Below, in pieces: positions 6,332 through 38,100 of a stretch of DNA of 64,000 nucleotides (position 1 is its first letter; every line of letters begins with the position of its first letter). A program made the translations under genes and the position numbers. This stretch comes from an uncultured Actinomycetota bacterium (lineage in GTDB: Bacteria > Actinomycetota > Actinomycetes > Mycobacteriales > Mycobacteriaceae): assembly GCA_963763005.1 (NCBI GenBank), contig CAVXMI010000007.1, positions 5,009-69,008 on the forward strand, in the 5' to 3' direction. The notes under the pieces are model-generated. The model worked only from the letters and a program-made list of their open reading frames with translations. It had not been told where the DNA came from and made no database searches.

Positions 6332-6788
6332 TGGCTCTGATGATTGAAAAACATACGAGCCCAATAAAATTCGATCGACCCATCGCATAGCAAAGAGCGC
6401 GGTAGCCGCTGCGAACGGTCAGCTGCTTGGCGGGGGCGCTGGATCGCCTGAATGCATGCTGTGCCAGTGCAGTTGCTCCTCGTGAGCAAGGTTCTAGGCC
6501 AAGGTCATTGGCGTGGTAGTTATTCTGACCTGGGCTGAGGCTGCAGACCTGAGCGCCGCCGTCGGACCCGCATGTCGCCACCCGGGGCGCTGGCCGCAAC
6601 GACGACGGCAGCTACGTGGGACGAAGGTCCCCTGACGGCGGTCAAACACGGGCAGTTGCCGGCCCGAGAGCTTCGGCGCCTTGGCCGCGTACCGGCTGTT
6701 TGACAGGGCTCCCTGTGCGCAGAGGCTGAAAAGGGATACGTTCACTTGCAGCGTCTTGGCGTTGCGTTTGGCCGGGGAGGGTGGGTAT

Positions 6789-11477: not shown

Positions 11478-12476
11478 ATGAACGCGCATTTTCCTGATGC
11501 CGGCACAGTCCGGACGGCTCTGGCTCTGGCTTCTCGAGCCCCCTCCGTCCACAACACGCAACCATGGCGGTGGCGGGTCGGCACGACGAGCCTGCATCTC
11601 TACTCCGACGCGAGCCTGCAACTGCCCAACACTGACCCGGACGGCCGAGACCTGATCTTGAGTTGCGGCGCGGCGCTGAATCATTGCGTCGTTGCTTTGG
11701 CATCGATCGGGTGGCAAGCCAAAGTGGCTCGTCTGCCCAATCCGGCTGACCCCAGTCACCTGGCCGCAATCGAATTGTCTCCCCAAACACCCGATCAGCT
11801 CGATATCACGCTGGCTGCGGCGATACCGCAGCGGCGAACTGATCGGCGGCACTACAGTTTCTGGCCGGTGCCGGTGGGCGATATTGCCCTGATGGCTGCG
11901 CGGGCGGCCCGGAATGGGGTGACGCTACGCCAAATCGACGCGATGGACGGGCTGAATAAGATTGTGGCGCAATCTGTCTGGGACCACGCAAATAACGATG
12001 ACTACCTTGCCGAGGTCGCGGTATGGAGCGGGCGGCACGCCGCCGTAGCCGGTGTTCCGGCCCGCAATACGCCAGTACCTGACCCCGCCGGGGCGCTACC
12101 CAGCCGGGTATTTGCTGATGCGGCGCCGGCCATGCCGCCCGGCGCATCACCGGTCGATGAGAACGCCGTAATGCTAGCGCTCGGAACCCGGACAGACGAC
12201 CGGCTGGCCAGGTTGCGCGCTGGTGAGGCCACCAGCGTTGTGCTGCTCACCGCGACAGCAATGGGATTGGCGAGTTGTCCGGTCACCGAACCGTTGGAGA
12301 TCGCAGAAACACGCGAGGCGGTCCGCGCCGATGTCTTCGGTAATAGTGACTATCCCCAGATGTTGCTTCGGGTGGGCTGGGCGCCGATCAACGCAGATCC
12401 GCTGCCATCGAAGCCGCGACGTGAACTCACCGATATCGTCGAGTGGATGGCCGATTCCGGTCAATACTTGGGATAG
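11478..12476 (+). CDS. Acg-family nitroreductase-like protein (Rv3131 orthologue)
   Basis: MNAHFPDAGTVRTALALASRAPSVHNTQPWRW closely matches recalled Rv3131; also RRTDRR and QMLLRVGWAPINADPLP. Confidence 0.93.
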   Translation: MNAHFPDAGTVRTALALASRAPSVHNTQPWRWRVGTTSLHLYSDASLQLPNTDPDGRDLILSCGAALNHCVVALASIGWQAKVARLPNPADPSHLAAIELSPQTPDQLDITLAAAIPQRRTDRRHYSFWPVPVGDIALMAARAARNGVTLRQIDAMDGLNKIVAQSVWDHANNDDYLAEVAVWSGRHAAVAGVPARNTPVPDPAGALPSRVFADAAPAMPPGASPVDENAVMLALGTRTDDRLARLRAGEATSVVLLTATAMGLASCPVTEPLEIAETREAVRADVFGNSDYPQMLLRVGWAPINADPLPSKPRRELTDIVEWMADSGQYLG

Positions 12477-18704: not shown

Positions 18705-18746
18705 ATAGGGACTGAAGTCCCGCGCATTCGGGACATTCGTCGCGAA
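18705..18746. promoter_or_regulatory. Tandem DosR boxes
   Basis: ATAGGGACTGAAGTCCCGCG (18705-18724) and TTCGGGACATTCGTCGCGAA (18727-18746, 17/20 to consensus). Confidence 0.85.
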
Positions 18747-22996: not shown

Positions 22997-24901
22997 AATG
23001 ACACCCCCTGGGCATGATGATCTGACAGATGCTCGATGGTGGACGTATCGCCTTCGGGCAGACCGAGTTCGCGAGCTTTCAGCAGCCGTCGCATGATCTT
23101 GCCGCTGCTGGTATGCGGCAGCGAATCAGCGAACTCTATCTCCTTGGGTGCCACGGCGGCCCCGAGCCGCTTGCGTGCGTGGCCCAGCAATTCCAGCCGC
23201 AGGTCGTCGTCGCCGACAAAGCCGTCTTTGAGCGTGACAAACGCTTTGATGACAGCGCCGACCGTCGGATCAGGCTTGCCGATGACCGCCGCCTCGGCCA
23301 CCGCGGGATGATCGGTCAGCGCGCTCTCCACCTCGAACGGGCCGATCAGGTGTCCGGCGGACTTGATCACGTCGTCCTTGCGTCCAACGAACCAGAAGTA
23401 GCCATCGGCGTCCTTTTTGGCCAGATCTCCGGTCAGGTAGAGCCCGTCGCTGAAGCACTTCCGATAGCGCTCCTCGGCGTGCAGATAACCGCGGAACATC
23501 GACGGCCAGCCCGGCTTGAGGGCAAGCTCACCCTCGACGTCGGGTTCGTCGATGACCGAGGTTGTGCCGTCATCGTTCTCGCGCACTATGCATGCGTCCA
23601 CGCCGGGCAGCGGACGGCCCATCGAGCCAGGCTTGATGTCGAACGCCGGTGTGTTCGCGATCATGATGCCGCCCGTCTCGGTCTGCCACCAATTGTCGTG
23701 AATCGGTAAGCCCAGCACCCGTTTGCCCCACCAGACCGCTTCCGGGTTGAGTGGCTCGCCCACACTTGCGATGAAGCGGAGCTGCGGGAAGCGGTATTGC
23801 GCTGGCAGTTCGGGGCCCGTTTTGATCAGCATTCTTATGCCGGTTGGCGCGGTGTACCACACCGACACACTCTGGTCCTGCAAGATCCGATACCACCGTT
23901 CGGCATCGAACTCGGCCTGGTCGACGATGGAGGTGACCCCATGCAGCAGCGGACTGATGATGCCGTAGGACGTTCCGGTGACCCAGCCGGGATCTGCTGT
24001 GCACCAATAGATGTCGTCAGGATGAAGGTCAAGCGCGTACAGGCCGGTGACGTAGTGCATCACGACGGCGCCGTGCACGTGGATGGCACCTTTCGGCGTA
24101 CCGGTGGTGCCGCTGGTGAAGTGCAGCAGCGCCGGGTCATCAGCGGTGGTGGGCTCGATCGGCGCGTTCTCGTCTGCCGCGTCCATGAGTTGCCAGAAGT
24201 TCAGCGTCCCGCGCGCCTCGTCGCCCGCCGCGTCATCGTCCACGACGAAGATGTGCCGCACCGACGTTAATCGATCGCGGATCTTGGCGATCTTGCGCTG
24301 GTAGATCGCCTTGGTCGTCACCAGCACATCGGCCTGCCCGATATCCACTCTGGTGGCGATCGGCTCCGGCCCGAAGGCCGAGAACAACGGCGAAACGACG
24401 CTGCCGTTGCGAAGCGCGCCCAGCATGGTGATGTAGAGCTCAGGGATGCGGCCCATGATTGTGAACACCCGGTCGCCTTTGCCGATGCCGAGCGAGCGCA
24501 ATACGCCGTTGAATCGGTTGGTAAGCCGGCCTAGTTCGGCGTAGCTGATATCGCGAGTGGAGATCGAACTGTCTGCGTAGTTGTCAGCGACGAACCGTAG
24601 CGCAGTATGTATCGCCGCTGCGCCCGACAGAGTGCCTGTCGACGGCGGCGTAGGCGATGTTGCACGTGCCTTGCTCCATGCCTTCGCACAATGCCGGCAC
24701 ATCGGACCAGTGGAATCGCGCACGCGCATGTTCGTAGTCCGTGAGGTTGGGCCGGACGCGATTGTCGTCGGGCGTCTTGCGAATGACGTCCACCGCGGAA
24801 TGTTCGACGCGGCCAATCGGTGCCATAGCTGTCCTCTGTTGTCGGTTGTGCGTCTTCTGTTGTCGGTTGTGCGTCTTCTGTTGTCGGTTGTGCGTCTTCA
24901 T
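22993..24901 (-). pseudogene. acsA: Acetate-CoA ligase (AcsA) with a frameshift near 24625
   Basis: The N-terminus ([14 protein letters not shown]...[11 protein letters not shown]) is in ORF 24584..25195; the rest (TALRFV...[28 protein letters not shown]) is in ORF 22993..24816. Start is ATG 24901 or 24826. Confidence 0.85.
24836..24898. repeat. Perfect tandem repeat, 3 x 21 bp
   Basis: CTGTTGTCGGTTGTGCGTCTT x3; encodes (KTHNRQQ)3 on the minus strand. Confidence 0.97.
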
Positions 24902-25404
24902 CGTTTGCCGGGCAGTCCGAGCCGCGATAGAGACGAAAGTCATCAATCGGACCGGTCCGTTGTCCTTGGCGCAGCGTGTCGCACAGTCATGCGATGACTG
25001 ACACCGCTTCGGTCGGGCGAATCGCGACTTTTGGCCGTTTGCACCCTGACTTTGTGCCGTTCCCGGTGGCGGCGCATATCCCACGTTCGGCCGGTCAGGC
25101 CCCGTCGGCAGACCTGATCCCTCGAGAGGCGATAGCGCCTGGTCGTGGCACGGTCGACGTGACTTCCTCCGCCGACCGCGCATCCCCGAGCGCAAGCAGC
25201 TGAATCGCTACCAAGCCTGGATCATTGCGAGTTCACTTTGGCCGGTAGCCCGGCGGCGACCGCGGCGTGCCGGCCTCGCGGTTCGCGGCGCTCGATACGC
25301 GGCGACCGCGTTTATCGGTGACTTCCGGCCCTAGGCGTAACCGACCTTGGCCGAGAGGATGGCGAAGTCCGGTGCAGGTCATCCCGGCGAGCATAGGATG
25401 TGAA

Positions 25405-25674
25405 ATGGCGTCGATCGGCGGCGAGCGACCAACGTTGACTGACTCAGATGTCGATGCACTCGCTTGGCAATTCGTGAACTCCGACTTTGCCGAGCAAAGA
25501 TACGCCGATTGGCCGCTCGATCAACGCATCGACGGCTTCCTCCGGCACCGGGGCCTTGCCCGCATTGCCGAGGACGGCGACGTCTATAGCGTCGTCCTCA
25601 ACCGCGTCATGGCCTACATCAGTGCGATGTCCGGCCAGGCCCATGGGCACGCCATCAACAAAATCGTCAATTGA
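25405..25674 (+). CDS. Small hypothetical protein (89 aa)
   Basis: Natural-looking sequence LTDSDVDALAWQFVNSDFAEQRYADWPLDQRIDGFLRHRGL with GC3-biased codons; purine-rich sequence before ATG 25405. Confidence 0.7.
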   Translation: MASIGGERPTLTDSDVDALAWQFVNSDFAEQRYADWPLDQRIDGFLRHRGLARIAEDGDVYSVVLNRVMAYISAMSGQAHGHAINKIVN

Positions 25675-25845
25675 GGGCCGTCGCGCATTCAGGCTCCATG
25701 TGGTCGGCTCATGGAAGGCAGCTCCCGGCAGGGGATACGTGCCCGGCCCGGGTGGCATACGGCTCCTCACAGCGCCCCATCGTCAGCGCGGAGGTGTCAA
25801 TCTCTGGGTCACTGCGAGGCTCCGATCACGGTGATCGCCGGCGCG

Positions 25846-25887
25846 CTGCGGACAAATGTCCCGCCGGCCGGGGACTTCTGTCCCTAG
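25846..25887. promoter_or_regulatory. Tandem DosR boxes of the hspX promoter
   Basis: CTGCGGACAAATGTCCCGCC (25846-25865) and CCGGGGACTTCTGTCCCTAG (25868-25887). The second is nearly identical to the site I recall upstream of M. tuberculosis hspX. Confidence 0.85.
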
Positions 25888-25950
25888 CGCTGACCCGCGG
25901 CCAGATGGTCACATCAGTGTTGTCAGTTCCGAATGAATTTTGGAGGCGCC

Positions 25951-26067
25951 GTGGCCGCCGCACTTCCGGTCCAGCGCCACCCGCGGTCGCTGTTCCCGGA
26001 GTTCTCCGAGCTGGTTTCGGAGGCGAAGCCGGCCGAAAAACACGTTCGGGTTCAGTCCGCCAGCTGA
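25951..26067 (+). pseudogene. hspX: hspX (alpha-crystallin) with an in-frame internal deletion; 38-aa mini-ORF
   Basis: GGAGG SD, then GTG: [21 protein letters not shown]|[17 protein letters not shown], i.e. the HspX N-terminus fused to its C-terminus; immediately upstream of the Rv2030c orthologue. Confidence 0.9.
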
Positions 26068-26113
26068 CCTGATCGTCGGCACCGGCGGTCGGGCTGGCGA
26101 GATGTCAAGGGGA

Positions 26114-28165
26114 ATGATGAACATGGCCAGAGCGGCCGATGCCACCCGGACCTCGCCGCGGCGCGTATTCCGCGACCGCCGCGAGGCCGGCCGGGTGCTG
26201 GCGGATCTTCTTACTGCCTACCGTGATCGACAGGACGTGATCGTGCTTGGCCTGGCGCGAGGTGGAGTACCCGTTGCATGGGAGGTTGCAGCGGCGCTGC
26301 ACGTCCCGCTGGATGCTTTCATCGTGCGCAAACTCGGCGCCCCGGGTCATGAAGAGTTTGCCTTTGGAGCTCTGGCAAGTGGGGGCCGCGTCGTTGTCAA
26401 TGACGACGTTGTGCGGGGCCTGCGGATCACCCCGCAGCAACTGCGCGACGTCGCCGAACGTGAAGGCCGCGAGCTGATCCGGCGCGAGGCCACCTACCGG
26501 GGCGAACGCCCGCCCGCCGATATCGCGGGCAAGACGGTCATTATCGTCGATGACGGTTTGGCTACCGGCGCAAGCATGTTCGCGGCGGTGCAGGCATTGC
26601 GCGAAGCTGAACCCGCACACATCGTGGTTGCGGTGCCGGCGGCGCCGGAGTCCACGTGTCGAGAGTTCGCCGGCCTTGTCGATGATGTCGTCTGCGCGTC
26701 AATGCCCACCCCATTTCTTGCGGTAGGTGAGTCGTTCTGGAATTTCACGCAGGTCACCGACGAGGAGGTCCGTCAGCTCCTGGCCACCCCGACGGCTGGG
26801 CCATCGTTGAGCAGACCTGCGGTGCCAACGGCGACCGATGTGATCCGCCGAGTCGCTATCGACGCCCCTGGGGGTGTCCCGCCGCGGGCGGTGCTAGAAG
26901 AACTGATCGGCGACGCGCGAATCGTATTGATCGGCGAAAGCTCGCATGGCACACACGAGTTCTACGAGGCGCGGGCCGCCATGACGAAGTGGCTGATCGA
27001 GGAGAAGGGCTTCTGCGCTGTGGTCGCCGAGGCGGACTGGCCCGACGCTTACCGCGTCAATCGGTACGTTCGCGGACTCGGCGAGGACAAGAACGCTGAC
27101 GAGGCGCTCAGCGGATTCGAACGGTTCCCGGCGTGGATGTGGCGCAATATCGTGGTTCGCGACTTTGTCGAGTGGCTACGCACCCGTAATCAGCGGTGCC
27201 AGGCGGACGGTCAGCGGCGAGCCGGTTTCTACGGTCTGGATCTTTATAGCCTGCATCGGTCGATCCAAGAAGTGGTCAGCTATCTCGACAAGGTCGACCC
27301 GATAGCCGCGGCACGGGCGCGGGCCCGCTATGCGTGCTTCGACCACGCCTCGGCCGATGACGGTCAGGCGTACGGATTCGCCGCCGCTTTCGGCGCCGGT
27401 CCGTCGTGCGAAAGTGAAGCCGTCGAGCAACTGGTCGACTTCCAGCGAAATGCACTGGCATATGCACGTGAAGACGGACTGCTCGCCGAAGACGAACTGT
27501 TCTACGCTCAGCAGAACGCACAGACGGTGCGCGACGCGGAGGTTTACTACCGGGCGATGTTCAGCGGACGCGTCACCTCGTGGAACCTGCGCGACCAGCA
27601 CATGGCGCAGACCCTTGGGGCGCTGCTGACGCACCTGGACCGCCACCTCGATGCACCGCCGGCCCGAATAGTTGTGTGGGCCCATAACTCCCACGTCGGC
27701 GACGCACGAGCGACAGAAGTGTGGGCCGACGGACAGCTCACCCTCGGACAACTCGTCCGTCAGCGATATGGCGACGAGTCGTGCAGCATCGGATTCAGCA
27801 CGTACACCGGTACCGTCACCGCGGCCAGCGAATGGGGCGGTGTCGCGGAACGAAAGGCCGTTCGGCCGGCGCTGAATGGGAGCGTCGAAGAACTCTTCCA
27901 CGAGACCGGTAGGGACAGCTTCCTGGTGTCGGCGCTTGTGAGCGAGGAAGCCGCAGCCCCGCTGGATGTCGTTCGGTTAGGACGCGCCATCGGCGTGATC
28001 TACCAGCCCGCGACGGAACGGCAAAGCCACTACTTCCACGTCCGGCCCGCCGATCAGTTCGACGCGATGATTCACATCGATGAGACCCGAGCCGTTGAAC
28101 CTCTCGAGGCCACGAGCCTCTGGATCGCCGGCGAGACACCAGAAACATATCCGACCGGTCTGTGA
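26114..28165 (+). CDS. Phosphoribosyltransferase / erythromycin-esterase fusion protein (Rv2030c orthologue)
   Basis: [27 protein letters not shown] (PRTase), [12 protein letters not shown] and [15 protein letters not shown] (EreA-like). Confidence 0.93.
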
Positions 28166-28474
28166 ACCCCGCACTGGACATCGCGACAAGCGTCGACATC
28201 GTCGCCGAAGATTCTCGGCGATTCGGATGCCGGGGGTAGCGGTGTTGGTGCCGGCCACACGATGGTTGCCGCGACTACCGTGGGCCTCAACCGCGGCTGG
28301 TTGCTCATCAAGTCCGTTCGTTTAGGCTTTGCGGCTGGTGCGCCCATGCTGCTGACACCGGGCACGGCCGGCTGAGGACCAATGGCTCTGAGAAGGCGAC
28401 CGTGAAGCCAATATCGTTGTAGGTGCGTCAGTCAACGGCACTCGACCGAAGTCAACCCGGAAGGCGCGCGATGA
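28162..28474 (+). pseudogene. pfkB: pfkB (1-phosphofructokinase family) collapsed by deletion
   Basis: [16 protein letters not shown], then SGVGAGHTMVAATTVGLNRGWLLIKSVRLG..AGAPMLLTPGTA, then VNPEGAR*, whose TGA overlaps the next ATG. Same position as Rv2029c. Confidence 0.85.
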
Positions 28475-29337
28475 AGGAATCACCTCCACCCACTTCGATC
28501 GTCGTCGGCATCGACGGCTCGAAGGGGGCAATACGCGCCGCACTCTGGGCCGTCGATGAAGCAGTCAGTCGTGACATCCCTTTGCGTCTGCTGTACGCGA
28601 TCGAACCCGACGATGCTCCGCGGACCCCTCCGGACAGGGCGGTTCGCAAACTCGCCATCGCAGAAAACGCTGTTCGCTACGCGTTCACGGCGGTCGAGGC
28701 CGCTGACAAGGCGGTCAAGATCGAAGTGGAGATCACCCAGGAGCGCCCGGTCACCTCGTTGATCCGCGCTTCGGCTTCGGCTGCCATGGTGTGCGTCGGC
28801 GCGGTCGGCGTGCGCCACTTCCGGCCAGAGCGGGTGGGCTCCACCGCTGCGGCGCTCGCCGTATCGGCACACTGCCCGGTGGCGATCATTCGAGGCAACG
28901 ATGATCGCCCCGAGCGGCATGCGCACTGGATCCTCGTTGACGCCCGCGGGTCAGCCGACACCGACGTTGTGCTGGGGACTGCGATCGAGGAAGCGCGGCT
29001 GCGGAACTCACCGCTTCGGGCGATCACCTTCCGGCAAAGCGGGGTCAGCGATCATGGCGTTGAGGGCGTGGCCGCAGACAGCGATCACCGGATACGTTCC
29101 AACCTAGACCGCCGGCTTGACCGTTGGACGCGACGCTACTCGGATGTCCGGGTGGAGTCCGCGGCAGTGCGCGGCAGCCTTCTGGACTATCTGGCGGAGA
29201 ACGGCCGGACGGTGCAGTTGGTCGTTGTCGGCGCCCGCAACAATGAACAAGTGGAACAACTTGTGGGACCAAGGGGCAATGCCGAGCTGCACAACGCAGA
29301 TTGCTCGGTGCTGATCGTCGATCGTCAGAATTTGTGA
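28471..29337 (+). CDS. Universal stress protein (Rv2028c-like)
   Basis: IVVGIDGS...WAVDEAVSRDIPLRLLY; tandem USP domains. Confidence 0.92.
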   Translation: MKESPPPTSIVVGIDGSKGAIRAALWAVDEAVSRDIPLRLLYAIEPDDAPRTPPDRAVRKLAIAENAVRYAFTAVEAADKAVKIEVEITQERPVTSLIRASASAAMVCVGAVGVRHFRPERVGSTAAALAVSAHCPVAIIRGNDDRPERHAHWILVDARGSADTDVVLGTAIEEARLRNSPLRAITFRQSGVSDHGVEGVAADSDHRIRSNLDRRLDRWTRRYSDVRVESAAVRGSLLDYLAENGRTVQLVVVGARNNEQVEQLVGPRGNAELHNADCSVLIVDRQNL

Positions 29338-29557: not shown

Positions 29558-29577
29558 CTGGGGACCAAGGACCCTGG
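29558..29577. promoter_or_regulatory. DosR-box-like site
   Basis: CTGGGGACCAAGGACCCTGG, 55 nt upstream of ATG 29633; a weaker site lies at 29459-29478. Confidence 0.65.
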
Positions 29578-29632
29578 CGTCCGATGTTCGCGTGCCTGAG
29601 AGTCGAAGTCAGACAGAAGGTAGGTGAGCGTA

Positions 29633-30616
29633 ATGACCCAAACGATGCTGGACATTGGGGTAATTACCAGGGCAGTGGAGTTAGCGTGCCATGCTCCCTC
29701 GCTGCACAATAGCCAACCTTGGCGGTGGGTGGTCGGAAGCACGAGTGTCGACCTGTTCGCTGATCCGCACAGAATCGTGACCGGGACTGACACCTCGGGT
29801 CGGGAAGCGATCATCAGCTGTGGCGCCGTGCTCGATCACTTTTGTGTCGCGATGGCTGCCGTTGGCTGGGATAGCGGGGTCGACCAGTTTCCCAACCCGA
29901 ACAATCTCGACCACGTTGCCTCGATCGACTTCGCTCAAATGAGCAACGTCGCCCAGGCCCGGCGTGAGCGCGCCAAGGCGATACTGCAGCGGCGAACCGA
30001 TCGACGTCCGTTCCGCGCGCCAAAGGACTGGGCGTCATTCGAAGCGGCGCTGTGCGGCTCGTACGACAGCGATTTGGCCGTGCTTGAGGTATTGGCCGAC
30101 GACGTTCGACCGCGGCTGGCGGAGGCGTCCCGGATTGCCGAGTCCGCACGGCGCTATGACGATCTTTATCATCATGAGCTGAGTTGGTGGACAGAACCTT
30201 CCAGGGAATCAGAAGGAATACCCCAAAGCGCGCTGCCATCAGAGTCGCAGGCCCGAAGAGTCGACGCAAACCGCCAATTTCCCGCCAATTGGTACGTGGA
30301 GCGGAGTTCTGGGGGCGTGCACGACCAAGCGAAGATCCTCGTGCTGTCCACGCCCGGGGACACGCGTATGGACGCCTTCAATTGCGGCCAGGTGCTTTCG
30401 GCGGTCCTACTGGAATGCACCATGGCTGGATTAGCAACATGCTCAGTGACGCACATCATGGAGATACAAGCCAGCCGTGACATCATTCGGAATCTCACGA
30501 CTGGCACAGAAGCGGTGCCTCAAATATTGATCCGGGTCGGCATCGAACCTGCGGGTGAGGTCCCGGCACCAACACCGCGGCGACCCTTGAGCGATGTGTT
30601 GGAGATTCATCGGTAG
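29633..30616 (+). CDS. Acg-family nitroreductase-like protein (Rv2032/Rv3127-like)
   Basis: [24 protein letters not shown] and ILIRVG...PTPRRP motifs. Confidence 0.92.
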
Positions 30617-30689: not shown

Positions 30690-30902
30690 CCACAGACGGA
30701 CCGTCAGGGACCCATTTCGCGCTGCGTGGCAGCTCGCACCTTCCGTTGCGGATGACACTATGACCGCCGGATCAGGAACTTTGGCTGTCTGACGGCGGTG
30801 CGCCTATGCTGGCCACAGGCACCTCGGCGTTGCCTGCTTCGTACTTTTGTTTGCGCAACGCGAGCTGCCTCATGTGGTAAGGCGTATGGAGGTAGCGGTC
30901 GG

Positions 30903-32615
30903 GTGCCCACCGACGAGAGCGGCTCGGCTTTTGCCGGGCTCGGCCAGCCTGGGCTGGTAGGCAGGATGCACGAGCAGCTCGACGAGTTGCTGGCTGCGCG
31001 CAATCAAATGGAGCAATTGCTGCGCGTAATCGTCGAGATCAGTTCAGATCTCGACCTCGACGCAACTCTGCGTCGGATCATCCTCGCGGCCAGGGAATTG
31101 ACCTCGGCTCCCTACGGCGCAGTGGCTGTCCGTGATCCCGAGGGAACGTTGGTCTCGTTTGTCCACGGGGGGATGGAGGCTGACACGGTTCAGCGGATCG
31201 GGCATCTGCCGGTTGGCAAGGGCGTTCTGGGTGTTTCGCTCGTCGAAACACCAGCGCTGCGTCTGGATGATCTGACCATGCATCCGGCTGCCTGCGGGTT
31301 CCCGGAGCACCACCCTCCCATGCGTGCTTTTCTTGGGGTGCCGATCACGATCCGGGGGACAGTATTCGGCAGCCTGTATCTGACCCATGACGATCCGGCG
31401 CGGGTGTTCTCTGCATCAGATGAGTTCGCCGCTCGCGCGTTGGCGTTTGCGGCCGCGGTCGCCATCGATAATGCGCAACTATTCCAGCGCGAGCGGACGT
31501 CGGTGAAGTGGATGGAGGCCAGCCGCGAGATCACTGCTGCGCTGCTGTCCAGCACCGAGCCGCACCGGCGCCCTTTGCAGTTGATCGCTGAACGTGCATG
31601 CGCGCTGACCGATGCCGAGCAGGCGATCGTTCTCGTTCCGATCGACTCCGACCTGCCCGTTGACGAAATCGACACCCTGGTGGTGTCTGCCGCGGTCGGG
31701 CTGCATGCCTCTGAGGTGATCGGCGAGCGGGTTCCGGTGGACGGCTCCACCAGCGGTTCCGTTTTTCGATCCGGTGAACCGCTGATCACCGAGAGGTTGA
31801 GTTACCCGATTCAGGCATTCACCGATGTCGCACAGCGCTCCGCGATCGTGATGCCGCTGCGCGCCAACGATGAAGTCGCCGGGGTGATTGCCATCGCGCG
31901 CGGTACGGACCAGCCACCATTCGACACCAGTTATCTCGACCTGGTGAGCCAGTTCGCCACTCACGCAGCGATAGCACTCATGCTCGCGTCAGGCCGCCAG
32001 AATGCGCGACAGCTAACTATTCTGGCCGAGCGCGAGCGCATCGCGCACGACTTGCACGACCATGTCATCCAAAGGCTGTTCGCCGCAGGCATGGATCTGC
32101 AGGGCACGCTTGCCAGGGCACGCTCACCGGAGGTCATCGACCGGCTCAACCGCACACTGGATGGCCTGCAAACCGTCATCGAGGAGATCCGCACCACCAT
32201 CTTCCAGCTAAAATCCCCATCGGGGCACGATGGCGGTTTTCGGCACCGGATTCAGCGTGTGGTTGCCGACCTGACCGAGAATCGTGACATCGTCACCGCC
32301 GTGCAGATGCACGGACCGTTGACGGCCGTTGGCGGCGAACTTGCCGAGCACGCCGAAGCGGTCACCACCGAAGCCATCAGCAACGCCATTCGCCATTCTG
32401 GCGCAACCCGGCTGACCGTCGAGGTCAGTGTCGCTGACATGTTCACTGTCGGCATCATCGACAACGGCTGTGGCGTGCCCGCCGACAATCCGCGCCGCAG
32501 CGGCTTAGCCAATATGAAGCACCGCGCTGAACAACTCGGTGGCACCTGCGAGATCATCACACCACCTGAGGGTGGCACCCGGGTCCACTGGACTGCTCCG
32601 CTGATCGACCCCTAA
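30903..32615 (+). CDS. dosT: GAF-GAF histidine kinase of the DosS/DosT family
   Basis: GFPEHHPPMRAFLGVPI (heme GAF-A segment), HDLHDHVIQRLF phospho-His, SNAIRH and DNGCG. The start at GTG 30903 after GGAGG is inferred. Confidence 0.88.
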   Translation: MPTDESGSAFAGLGQPGLVGRMHEQLDELLAARNQMEQLLRVIVEISSDLDLDATLRRIILAARELTSAPYGAVAVRDPEGTLVSFVHGGMEADTVQRIGHLPVGKGVLGVSLVETPALRLDDLTMHPAACGFPEHHPPMRAFLGVPITIRGTVFGSLYLTHDDPARVFSASDEFAARALAFAAAVAIDNAQLFQRERTSVKWMEASREITAALLSSTEPHRRPLQLIAERACALTDAEQAIVLVPIDSDLPVDEIDTLVVSAAVGLHASEVIGERVPVDGSTSGSVFRSGEPLITERLSYPIQAFTDVAQRSAIVMPLRANDEVAGVIAIARGTDQPPFDTSYLDLVSQFATHAAIALMLASGRQNARQLTILAERERIAHDLHDHVIQRLFAAGMDLQGTLARARSPEVIDRLNRTLDGLQTVIEEIRTTIFQLKSPSGHDGGFRHRIQRVVADLTENRDIVTAVQMHGPLTAVGGELAEHAEAVTTEAISNAIRHSGATRLTVEVSVADMFTVGIIDNGCGVPADNPRRSGLANMKHRAEQLGGTCEIITPPEGGTRVHWTAPLIDP

Positions 32616-37110: not shown

Positions 37111-38100
37111 ATGACAGCGACGGTGCCCGATTCGGGGGTCATCCGGGACGCGGTGATGCTCGCGTGTCGTGCACCTTCGCTGCATAACAGCCAGCCCTGG
37201 CGGTGGGTTGCCGAAGGCGCGACTCTGCAGCTGTGGGCCGATCCCCGCCGGTTGATGCCGGCTACCGACCACACGGGCCGGGAACTGACGTTGAGCTGCG
37301 GCGCCGTCCTAGACCACCTGCGGGTCGCCATGGCCGCTGCTCGATGGGACAGCGTCACGGAACGGTTCCCCAATCCGGATAACCCGGATCATCTGGCGAC
37401 ACTGCAGTTCCGGCCCGTGGAGACCGTCACGGAGGCATACCGGCTGTGGGCGGATGCGATCCGTCTGCGCCGCACCGACCGATTACCGTTCGGTGCGCCA
37501 GTCGCCTGGCCGGCGCTGGAGTCGGTGCTGTCCCGCACGGTGATTCCGTACGAGGTGATGCTGGATGTGGTGGCCGACGATGAGCGGCCAAGGTTGGCCG
37601 AGGCGTCTCAGCTCACCGAGACGCTGCGCCGCTACGACACGTCGTATCTGTCCGAACTGCGATGGTGGACCTCGCCGTTCGAGTCGGACACCACCCATGT
37701 GCCAGAAAGCGCTCTGCTGTCCAGCTCGGAAGCCGCCCGAGTCGATATCGCCCGCGCGTTTCCCCCGGCAGGTGGGGGCCACCGGCGCGCCACCGTGGAC
37801 CACGACCACTCCAAAATCCTGGTGCTCTCGACTCATCATGACGACGCCCCGCTGGACGTATTGCGCTGCGGTGAGGCGTTGTCGGCTGTACTGCTCGAGT
37901 GCACCGTGGCCGGCATGGCCACCTGCACATTGACCCATATGACGGAGATGTCAATGAGCCGCAACATCATCGCGCAGATCACCGGAACGGCCGGCCGGCC
38001 GCAGCTGCTGATCCGGGTCGGTAGACCGCCGGGGAACGACCAACATGTCAAACCCACCGCTCGGCGTCCGATAGCCGAAGTCCTCGATTTCCGCGATTGA
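37111..38100 (+). CDS. acg: Acg-family nitroreductase-like protein
   Basis: [35 protein letters not shown] and HSKILVLST; the closest of the three to recalled Rv2032. Confidence 0.9.
   Translation: MTATVPDSGVIRDAVMLACRAPSLHNSQPWRWVAEGATLQLWADPRRLMPATDHTGRELTLSCGAVLDHLRVAMAAARWDSVTERFPNPDNPDHLATLQFRPVETVTEAYRLWADAIRLRRTDRLPFGAPVAWPALESVLSRTVIPYEVMLDVVADDERPRLAEASQLTETLRRYDTSYLSELRWWTSPFESDTTHVPESALLSSSEAARVDIARAFPPAGGGHRRATVDHDHSKILVLSTHHDDAPLDVLRCGEALSAVLLECTVAGMATCTLTHMTEMSMSRNIIAQITGTAGRPQLLIRVGRPPGNDQHVKPTARRPIAEVLDFRD

Follow-up and report, generated by a model that had tools for sequence, protein, structure and literature searches.

The 64,000-nucleotide stretch of contig CAVXMI010000007.1 analyzed here (the window), from an uncultured environmental Mycobacterium (family Mycobacteriaceae), carries at positions 25951-26067 of the forward strand a 38-codon open frame closed by TGA (GTG GCC GCC ... 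AGC TGA) that we read, from comparison with its intact orthologs, as a deletion remnant of hspX (acr, the Rv2031c ortholog). In M. tuberculosis, HspX ranks among the dormancy proteins with the strongest induction, and it is in wide use as an antigen of latency. The frame joins the first 21 and the last 17 residues of this Acr/Rv2031c-type protein, in frame, behind a DosR-type promoter. The stub is quite probably a non-functional remnant whose promoter is retained because it drives the downstream Rv2030c ortholog and a universal stress protein (USP) gene. A survey of related species indicates that hspX loss is recurrent, with the DosR promoter retained and apparently handed to the Rv2030c ortholog, and this family-wide pattern is a more interesting result than the single stub. 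The elements on which the argument rests are the following.

25849..25862, forward strand: distal DosR/DevR box core CGGACAAATGTCCC, with one mismatch to GGGAC-N4-GTCCC
25871..25884, forward strand: proximal DosR/DevR box core GGGACTTCTGTCCC, perfect
25885..25941, forward strand: promoter core and 5' leader, including TGGTCACAT, the counterpart of a conserved TGGTCGGAT element (nhmmer profile positions ~99-170 and alignments)
25942..25946, forward strand: Shine-Dalgarno (SD) sequence GGAGG, 4 nt before the GTG, counterpart of the GAGGAG/GGGAG found 5' of the orthologs' ATG
25951..26013, forward strand: 5' piece of hspX, the N-terminal arm (GTG plus 20 codons), 18/21 residues identical to M. 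tuberculosis-complex-type HspX (L057) by tblastn
26013..26014, forward strand: deletion junction ...GAGCTG/GTTTCGGAG..., with 315-318 bp of hspX gone, on a codon boundary and with 1-nt (G) microhomology
26014..26067, forward strand: 3' piece of hspX, the last 17 codons and the native TGA, the C-terminal I/V-x-I/V motif being present as V-R-V
26068..26116, forward strand: spacer from the stub stop to the Rv2030c ortholog, 46-55 nt depending on the ATG chosen, with an AAGGGG SD sequence of its own
26117..28165, forward strand: Rv2030c ortholog, with phosphoribosyltransferase and erythromycin-esterase domains (Pfam PF00156 and PF05139, E = 1e-125)

The stub was aligned with the 143-residue protein of genome G008 (L004:1057-1488), with the 144-residue M. 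tuberculosis-complex-type protein of a Logan assembly (L057), and with ~45 other orthologs. Relative to these, 105-106 hspX codons are absent between the kept residues 1-21 and the last 17. G008 is the closest species genome with the locus, and there an intact 143-residue HSP20 protein fills the slot and ends 9 nt before the Rv2030c ortholog. The Pfam HSP20 family (PF00011) covers residues 43-139 of that protein (E = 4.7e-24), a span that is missing entirely from the stub. With hmmscan, the 38-residue product matched no Pfam family at E <= 0.01, and it lacks the alpha-crystallin domain that characterizes HSP20 proteins. The stub cannot act as a chaperone of the small heat shock protein (sHSP) type.

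The two ends that remain are recognizable as HspX. Residues 5-21 are identical to L057 HspX, with 7 synonymous and no non-synonymous differences in the underlying codons, and the C-terminal anchoring motif can be identified by sequence match, reading HVRVQS in the stub, HIQIRS in the M. tuberculosis-complex type, and HVQVQS in other orthologs. Both the N-terminal arm (LPVQR...) and the slot that it occupies, after the DosR promoter and before the Rv2030c ortholog, assign the stub to the hspX ortholog group by tblastn and alignment, and the synteny of the slot agrees with that of 27 species that have an intact hspX. ATG is the start codon of all 31 intact orthologs checked, a contrast to the GTG of the stub that the original prediction had not remarked on; the stub's start codon appears to have drifted from ATG to GTG and would thereby be weakened. 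The original prediction, made from the letters of the window, had described hspX as cut down to a 38-residue in-frame mini-gene by removal of about 106 residues, including the whole alpha-crystallin domain, with a GGAGG SD sequence and an open frame closed by the native stop. Our reading of the frame and the alignment of its first 21 and last 17 residues bear out the mini-gene, the 105-106 missing codons and the vanished Pfam span agree with the extent of the loss, and the SD sequence and native stop can be read directly.

Compared with HspX (Acr, the 16-kDa alpha-crystallin, Rv2031c) of M. tuberculosis, the locus keeps the order of DosR promoter, hspX, and Rv2030c, the position of the stop codon, and nearly the same distance from DosR box to start codon (~64 versus 63 nt), and homology is clear in the last 17 residues as it is in the first 21. 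It differs in that the ~105-residue alpha-crystallin domain is gone, the start is GTG rather than ATG, and acg is not the divergent upstream neighbor.

At the junction, intact genes read GAGCTG/TTCGC... on the 5' side and ...GTGGCG/GTTTCGGAG on the 3' side, and an nhmmer map of the window locus shows profile positions 232-548 to be absent. No repeat flanks the deleted segment. The junction may be the product of end joining or of slippage without a repeat.

The genome to which the window belongs comprises 5.15 Mb in 16 contigs and is 99.5% complete. The only HSP20 genes found by a whole-genome Pfam search are one resembling Acr2 (Rv0251c), on contig C2 (G000 C2:395434-395883), and one resembling Hsp18, which adjoins a MerR/HspR-type regulator on contig C10. 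A tblastn search with intact HspX returned only these two sHSPs (40% and 32% identity) and the two pieces of the stub, and the missing middle part of hspX was found nowhere else in the genome. The possibility of another intact hspX copy, raised with the original prediction, can therefore be set aside for this genome. The functional part of the gene has thus been lost relative to intact orthologs at the same locus, and no intact copy stands elsewhere, as expected for a gene remnant.

The promoter in front of the stub has been spared. The centers of the two DosR boxes lie 22 bp apart, in tandem and in phase, which is the arrangement described for Dev boxes (PMC3177182), and they resemble DevR/DosR Class I/II promoters in that one box is perfect and primary-like while the other is weaker and secondary-like (Chauhan et al. 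2011, PMC3177182). The same box (GGGACTTC[GC]GTCCC) is found at the same place 5' of intact hspX in relatives. DosR-type cores as such are not significantly enriched in the 64-kb window (8 seen versus 4.5 expected), and we take the boxes of the hspX promoter as real sites because of their tandem spacing and because the same box occupies the same position in orthologous promoters. From the proximal box to the GTG there are 66 nt when measured from the core and ~64 nt when measured from the 18-bp box; for the proximal box of M. tuberculosis hspX, the distances are 63 nt to the start codon and 34 nt to the transcription start (PMC3177182). If the latter distance is the same here, a transcription start is predicted near 25920. 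The two boxes that the original prediction had placed ahead of the stub are therefore present, one perfect and one with a single mismatch, and the region agrees with a DosR/DevR-regulated promoter in having two adjacent, helically phased Dev boxes and with the M. tuberculosis promoter in the distance to the start codon. The M. tuberculosis hspX promoter has three reported boxes (P-S-P), compared to two recognizable boxes in the window, and no divergent acg promoter shares the window region.

In M. tuberculosis, hspX heads the Rv2031c-Rv2028c operon behind tandem Dev boxes and its promoter is induced ~300-fold in hypoxia (PMC3177182), with Rv2030c cotranscribed with hspX (PMC3110807; PMC3177182). 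In the window, the hspX promoter is followed by the stub and then, as its first intact gene, by the Rv2030c ortholog. A consensus scan of 25650-26200 predicted no terminator, and the fold of the leader RNA (25920-26135) gave a z score of -1.3, with no special structure. A sigma-70 consensus scan found no match at the hspX promoter, a result that is uninformative for a DosR-activated mycobacterial promoter, and a search of 24000-29000 against Rfam returned only a mir-278 match to the DosR palindromes, a chance alignment (E = 0.26) that falls far short of the gathering score. The regulator also appears to be present, since the genome encodes on contig C10 (44398-43751), next to a DosS-like kinase, a protein that we take to be DosR, with 95% identity over 216 residues to a DosR query. 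It can reasonably be inferred that the stub is probably still highly expressed, as had been proposed, because both the promoter geometry and dosR are intact.

Further DosR-type cores lie elsewhere in the window, at 18708-18721, 18730-18743, 6618-6631, and 29561-29574. The pair at 18708 and 18730 has the same 22-bp center spacing as the hspX pair, and the core at 29561 is just 5' of a gene for an Acg-like nitroreductase (29624-30616).

To place the stub in context, we surveyed 80 other species with an Rv2030c ortholog, taking 2.5 kb of flank from each and mapping the hspX slot by tblastn, by inspection, and by nhmmer with a profile of 20 intact loci. In 27 of the 80, an intact hspX stands directly 5' of Rv2030c, and a perfect DosR box is found at -525 to -543 relative to the start of Rv2030c. 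Coding stubs of different sizes and with different breakpoints are found in 11 species, some in frame, some out of frame, and some consisting of the start codon only. In a further 21, just the promoter segment (profile positions ~60-133) is left, directly before Rv2030c or another small gene, while 20 species have no detectable remainder in the slot and one (L109) is ambiguous. Each stub has a junction that is unique among the surveyed species.

A stub similar to that of the window occurs in a soil metagenome-assembled genome (MAG; L064, MFD05502.bin.1.241, locus L064:1-2530), where an independent in-frame fusion of 34 codons reads MSTLAVRRHPASLFP/VADSDPKATERRVQVQSAN followed by a stop; this stub departs from the conserved VSE motif and stands behind a degraded DosR box. 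In M. intermedium DSM 44049 (L066), a 31-codon frame still has recognizable ends and a decayed conserved core (...RAAGAVFPHDGAV...), in which the conserved stretch of 10 residues has turned into GAVFPHDGAV. The first 2-3 codons are joined out of frame to the last 22 in the MAG MFD00082.bin.1.17 (L121), ~6-9 hspX codons are left, out of frame, in G003 and in M. paraffinicum M11 (L080), and 3 codons are left in M. scrofulaceum DSM 43992 (L073). In Mycobacterium sp. E2733 (L070) and M. gordonae DSM 44160 (L087), the SD sequence and ATG of hspX now start Rv2030c itself, and in the former they are fused precisely to the Rv2030c coding sequence. The DosR promoter segment thus survives 5' of Rv2030c together with stubs of 34, 31, ~22, ~12, 3, and 0 codons, whether in or out of frame.

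On a FastTree tree of Rv2030c orthologs, the four stubs that retain both ends of hspX fall at four separate places, each beside lineages with an intact gene. Mapping intact versus not-intact hspX on this tree takes 13 changes, of which at least 8 are forced by well-supported branches. In a 401-genome sample of the genus, a strong HspX-type match (E <= 1e-28) is present in ~156 genomes, the others giving matches only at the level of paralogs; lack of hspX is therefore common in the genus. We found no paper on natural hspX remnants in non-tuberculous mycobacteria in a literature search that was not exhaustive. In environmental and opportunistic mycobacteria, hspX has been lost repeatedly and appears to be dispensable, with the DosR promoter kept and apparently taken over by the Rv2030c ortholog. 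For the dormancy regulon, the conserved unit in the slot would then be the promoter, Rv2030c, and the USP gene rather than hspX.

Two details of the surveyed loci can be added. Three independent 3' breakpoints fall within 13 nt (profile positions 536, 540, and 549) and may mark a deletion hot spot. In M. gordonae DSM 44160, a short tandem repeat of AATGGGCCTAGCT in ~3.5 copies lies directly 5' of the DosR box, ~160-220 nt before the Rv2030c start.

The history of the window locus that we favor is a simple one. One internal deletion, ~315 bp long, nearly free of microhomology and by chance on codon boundaries, would have removed the alpha-crystallin domain and left 21 and 17 codons in frame. 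The promoter with its two tandem DosR boxes would have been spared, as would the ribosome-binding site and the native stop. The hspX promoter would also be the promoter of the whole unit, that is, of the Rv2030c ortholog, a pfkB fragment, and the USP gene. Because it serves the whole unit, deletions of the promoter would be purged by selection whereas deletions inside hspX would be tolerated. DosR should still fire the promoter under hypoxia, with the stub carried along as a transcribed leader. The stub is probably transcribed and perhaps translated, and the 38-residue product, having no chaperone domain, is most likely inert. The anatomy of the stub, the lack of another hspX in the genome, the intact dosR-dosS pair, the recovery of the junction in a second assembly, and the many independent hspX deletions with a kept promoter in other species are direct results; we infer from them an active promoter, its control of Rv2030c, and a peptide without function.

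The locus shares with other mycobacterial gene remnants that stand beside a still-needed promoter the loss of an essential domain, the presence of intact orthologs at the same locus, and the existence of several independent remnants. It differs from typical gene remnants in that the deletion is in frame on codon boundaries and full expression signals are kept, which makes the stub slightly unusual among deletion remnants. There is a practical side for annotation as well, since an in-frame internal deletion of this kind can pass as a small protein-coding gene, and one pipeline did call a 38-residue protein here.

Some observations sit less easily with a remnant that has no function. The stub has no stop, frameshift, or decay beyond its start codon, and it keeps all of the residues that are conserved in intact orthologs. 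This intactness fits a recent deletion and, equally, purifying selection. Only ~32 codons of the stub can be compared, too few for dN/dS; against single orthologs they show 5-13 synonymous and 5-12 non-synonymous differences. Moreover, three of the four two-ended stubs (those of the window, L064, and L066) are in frame with the native stop, where one-third would be expected; this excess is not significant (P ~0.11), but it might reflect selection for a stop codon close to where Rv2030c begins.

The last point leads to a different explanation, in which the act of translation and not the peptide is selected, the stub being kept as a translated leader open reading frame (ORF) and in-frame deletions being favored. 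Ribosomes running from the hspX site to the native stop would cover the 5' part of the mRNA and guard it against Rho-dependent polarity or RNA decay, or they would be handed over to Rv2030c. The SD sequence, start, and native stop have all been kept, as this explanation asks, and the preponderance of in-frame stubs goes in the same direction, although with the weak statistics given above. The ORFs of the out-of-frame stubs also end at or within ~15 nt of the Rv2030c start (an ATGA overlap in L121, TGATG in L080, and 15 nt inside the gene in G003), but an ORF ending near the next start is expected by chance in regions so short. Like bacterial leader ORFs, the stub is short, has a good ribosome site, lies at the 5' end of the mRNA, and stops shortly before the first long gene; unlike dedicated regulatory leader ORFs, it derives from a decayed gene, is followed by no attenuator or terminator structure, and belongs to no Rfam family.

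The distance between the two genes bears on this question directly. In species with an intact hspX, the stop-to-start gap is 8-30 nt, typical of translational coupling, compared to 46-55 nt in the window, where three in-frame ATGs (26114, 26117, and 26123) could start Rv2030c; the recorded gene call of 682 residues implies a start at 26117. The window spacer (26068-26125) does not align to the profile of its relatives by nhmmer, and since it is also longer than in all species with an intact hspX, the 5' end of Rv2030c must have been remodeled in the lineage of the window. Direct translational coupling from the stub to Rv2030c is therefore doubtful here, given the 46-55 nt gap, the AAGGGG SD sequence that Rv2030c has for itself, and the unalignable spacer. 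In addition, the 21 species in which Rv2030c follows straight from the promoter show that no leader ORF is required. Taken together, we regard a selected leader ORF as unlikely. The original prediction had proposed neutral debris that keeps transcription and coupling to Rv2030c; the debris and the kept promoter are well supported by the data above, while tight coupling is less likely in this genome than in its relatives.

It is more improbable still that the 38-residue product is a functional, hypoxia-induced micropeptide that docks in the beta4/beta8 groove of Acr2-like or Hsp18-like sHSPs and modulates their assembly. The I/V-x-I/V motif of sHSPs binds the groove of neighboring subunits, the frame is open, and both the conserved core of the N-terminal arm and the KPAE-x-HV-x-V residues are intact. 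Possible partners are also at hand in the two other sHSPs with an alpha-crystallin domain, and a second fusion of N-terminal arm and C-terminal tail has arisen independently, in frame, in L064. The latter stub is, however, the one altered in the conserved VSE motif and preceded by a degraded DosR box, and the start of the window stub is a weakened GTG with a 4-nt spacer to its SD sequence. The same short ORF is not conserved in related lineages. A degenerate 30-nt pattern for the junction (EFSEL/VSEAK) had no match in 185,579 species genomes or in JGI metagenome contigs, the window's own record being set aside in both scans, so that the comparison of sister strains for the same junction, suggested with the original prediction, yielded none; the Rv2030c ortholog of the window is likewise a singleton, 84-88% identical to mycobacterial orthologs and with a next-best protein at 88%.

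Searches at the protein level gave a similar picture. A 44-residue query, extended to the upstream ATG, recovered in a search of short proteins only the window's own peptide and frameshifted fragments of M. tuberculosis-complex-type HspX, with no homologous mini-proteins fusing the N and C termini. Elsewhere the coding sequence has been deleted wholly or the stubs are out of frame or decayed: with L121, G003, and L080 out of frame and the core of the M. intermedium stub eroded, no peptide is conserved across the stubs. The earlier suggestion of a small peptide that interacts with other sHSPs thus found no support, its junction being absent from every relative and the peptide being lost in other lineages. 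That the stub is a soluble, arm-only modulator of Acr2-like or Hsp18-like chaperones, induced by hypoxia and paralleled by the independent fusion in L064, strikes us as highly improbable. On its own, the stub of the window is an ordinary gene remnant, and only this micropeptide reading, were it true, would make more of it.

Truncated HspX calls occur in M. tuberculosis-complex-type Logan assemblies (P0123-P0126; L058 and L059), where frameshifts, which could be natural variants or assembly errors, leave products of 38-74 residues.

The closest relatives of the window's genome are MAGs, and the genome itself may be one too, but it is scarcely credible that the deletion is an assembly or binning artifact or a minority allele in an organism with an intact hspX, since a second assembly made by a different pipeline has the same junction over 1.8 kb, the breakpoint has no repeat and only 1 nt of microhomology, no orphan middle piece of hspX exists in the nearly complete genome, the neighboring pfkB fragment shows the same kind of erosion, and comparable stubs occur in the isolate genomes of M. 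intermedium DSM 44049, M. scrofulaceum DSM 43992, and M. paraffinicum. The second assembly is a Logan contig of run ERR11523667 (L056, 1832 bp), which corresponds to window positions 25185-27016 with one mismatch, at 26311, outside the stub, and carries the exact 38-residue ORF. This product is recorded once in a collection of 15 billion proteins, called on the same Logan contig, with a cluster size of 1. Assembly collapse, which the original prediction had named as the event that would undo it, was considered and rejected, there being no repeat at the deleted segment and the independent contig being in agreement at the level of the assemblies.

Behind the Rv2030c ortholog, the remainder of the unit and its neighbors are arranged as follows.

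28238..28369, forward strand: pfkB (Rv2029c-type) fragment of 44 codons, matching residues 259-302 of 339 with 84% identity by tblastn
28423..29337, forward strand: universal stress protein (Rv2028c type; Pfam Usp), the last gene of the unit, 65% identical to the L057 Rv2028c-type protein
29624-30616, forward strand: Acg-like nitroreductase (Pfam)
30798-32615, forward strand: GAF-GAF histidine kinase of the DosS/DosT type (Pfam)

The Rv2031c-Rv2028c gene order is kept in the window, but hspX is reduced to its 38-codon stub and pfkB to a 44-codon fragment, with gaps of 46-55 nt and ~250 nt. A full pfkB stands 3' of Rv2030c in 60 of the 80 other species, and the genome of the window has a full pfkB paralog (72%) on contig C4. 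The pfkB fragment is a second deletion remnant in the hspX operon and illustrates the deletional erosion of the locus. The region of the hspX stub is part of a hypoxia island.

The GAF-GAF kinase shares only 40-43% identity with the genome's two other DosS/DosT-like kinases (on C2, and on C10 beside dosR) and, at this identity, represents a divergent third sensor. In two of the M. tuberculosis-complex-type assemblies with truncated HspX calls (SRR25515284 and SRR25534375), the dosT-type kinase is split into ORFs of 255 and 290 residues, which again could be natural variants or assembly errors. Upstream of the hspX promoter there are two small conserved genes of unknown function (e.g., 25267-25674) and no Acg paralog as a divergent neighbor. 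Three Acg (Rv2032)-like nitroreductase paralogs are nevertheless encoded on the forward strand of the 64-kb window, at 11508-12443, 29633-30607, and 37111-38094, with 35-55% identity to the M. tuberculosis-complex-type Acg.

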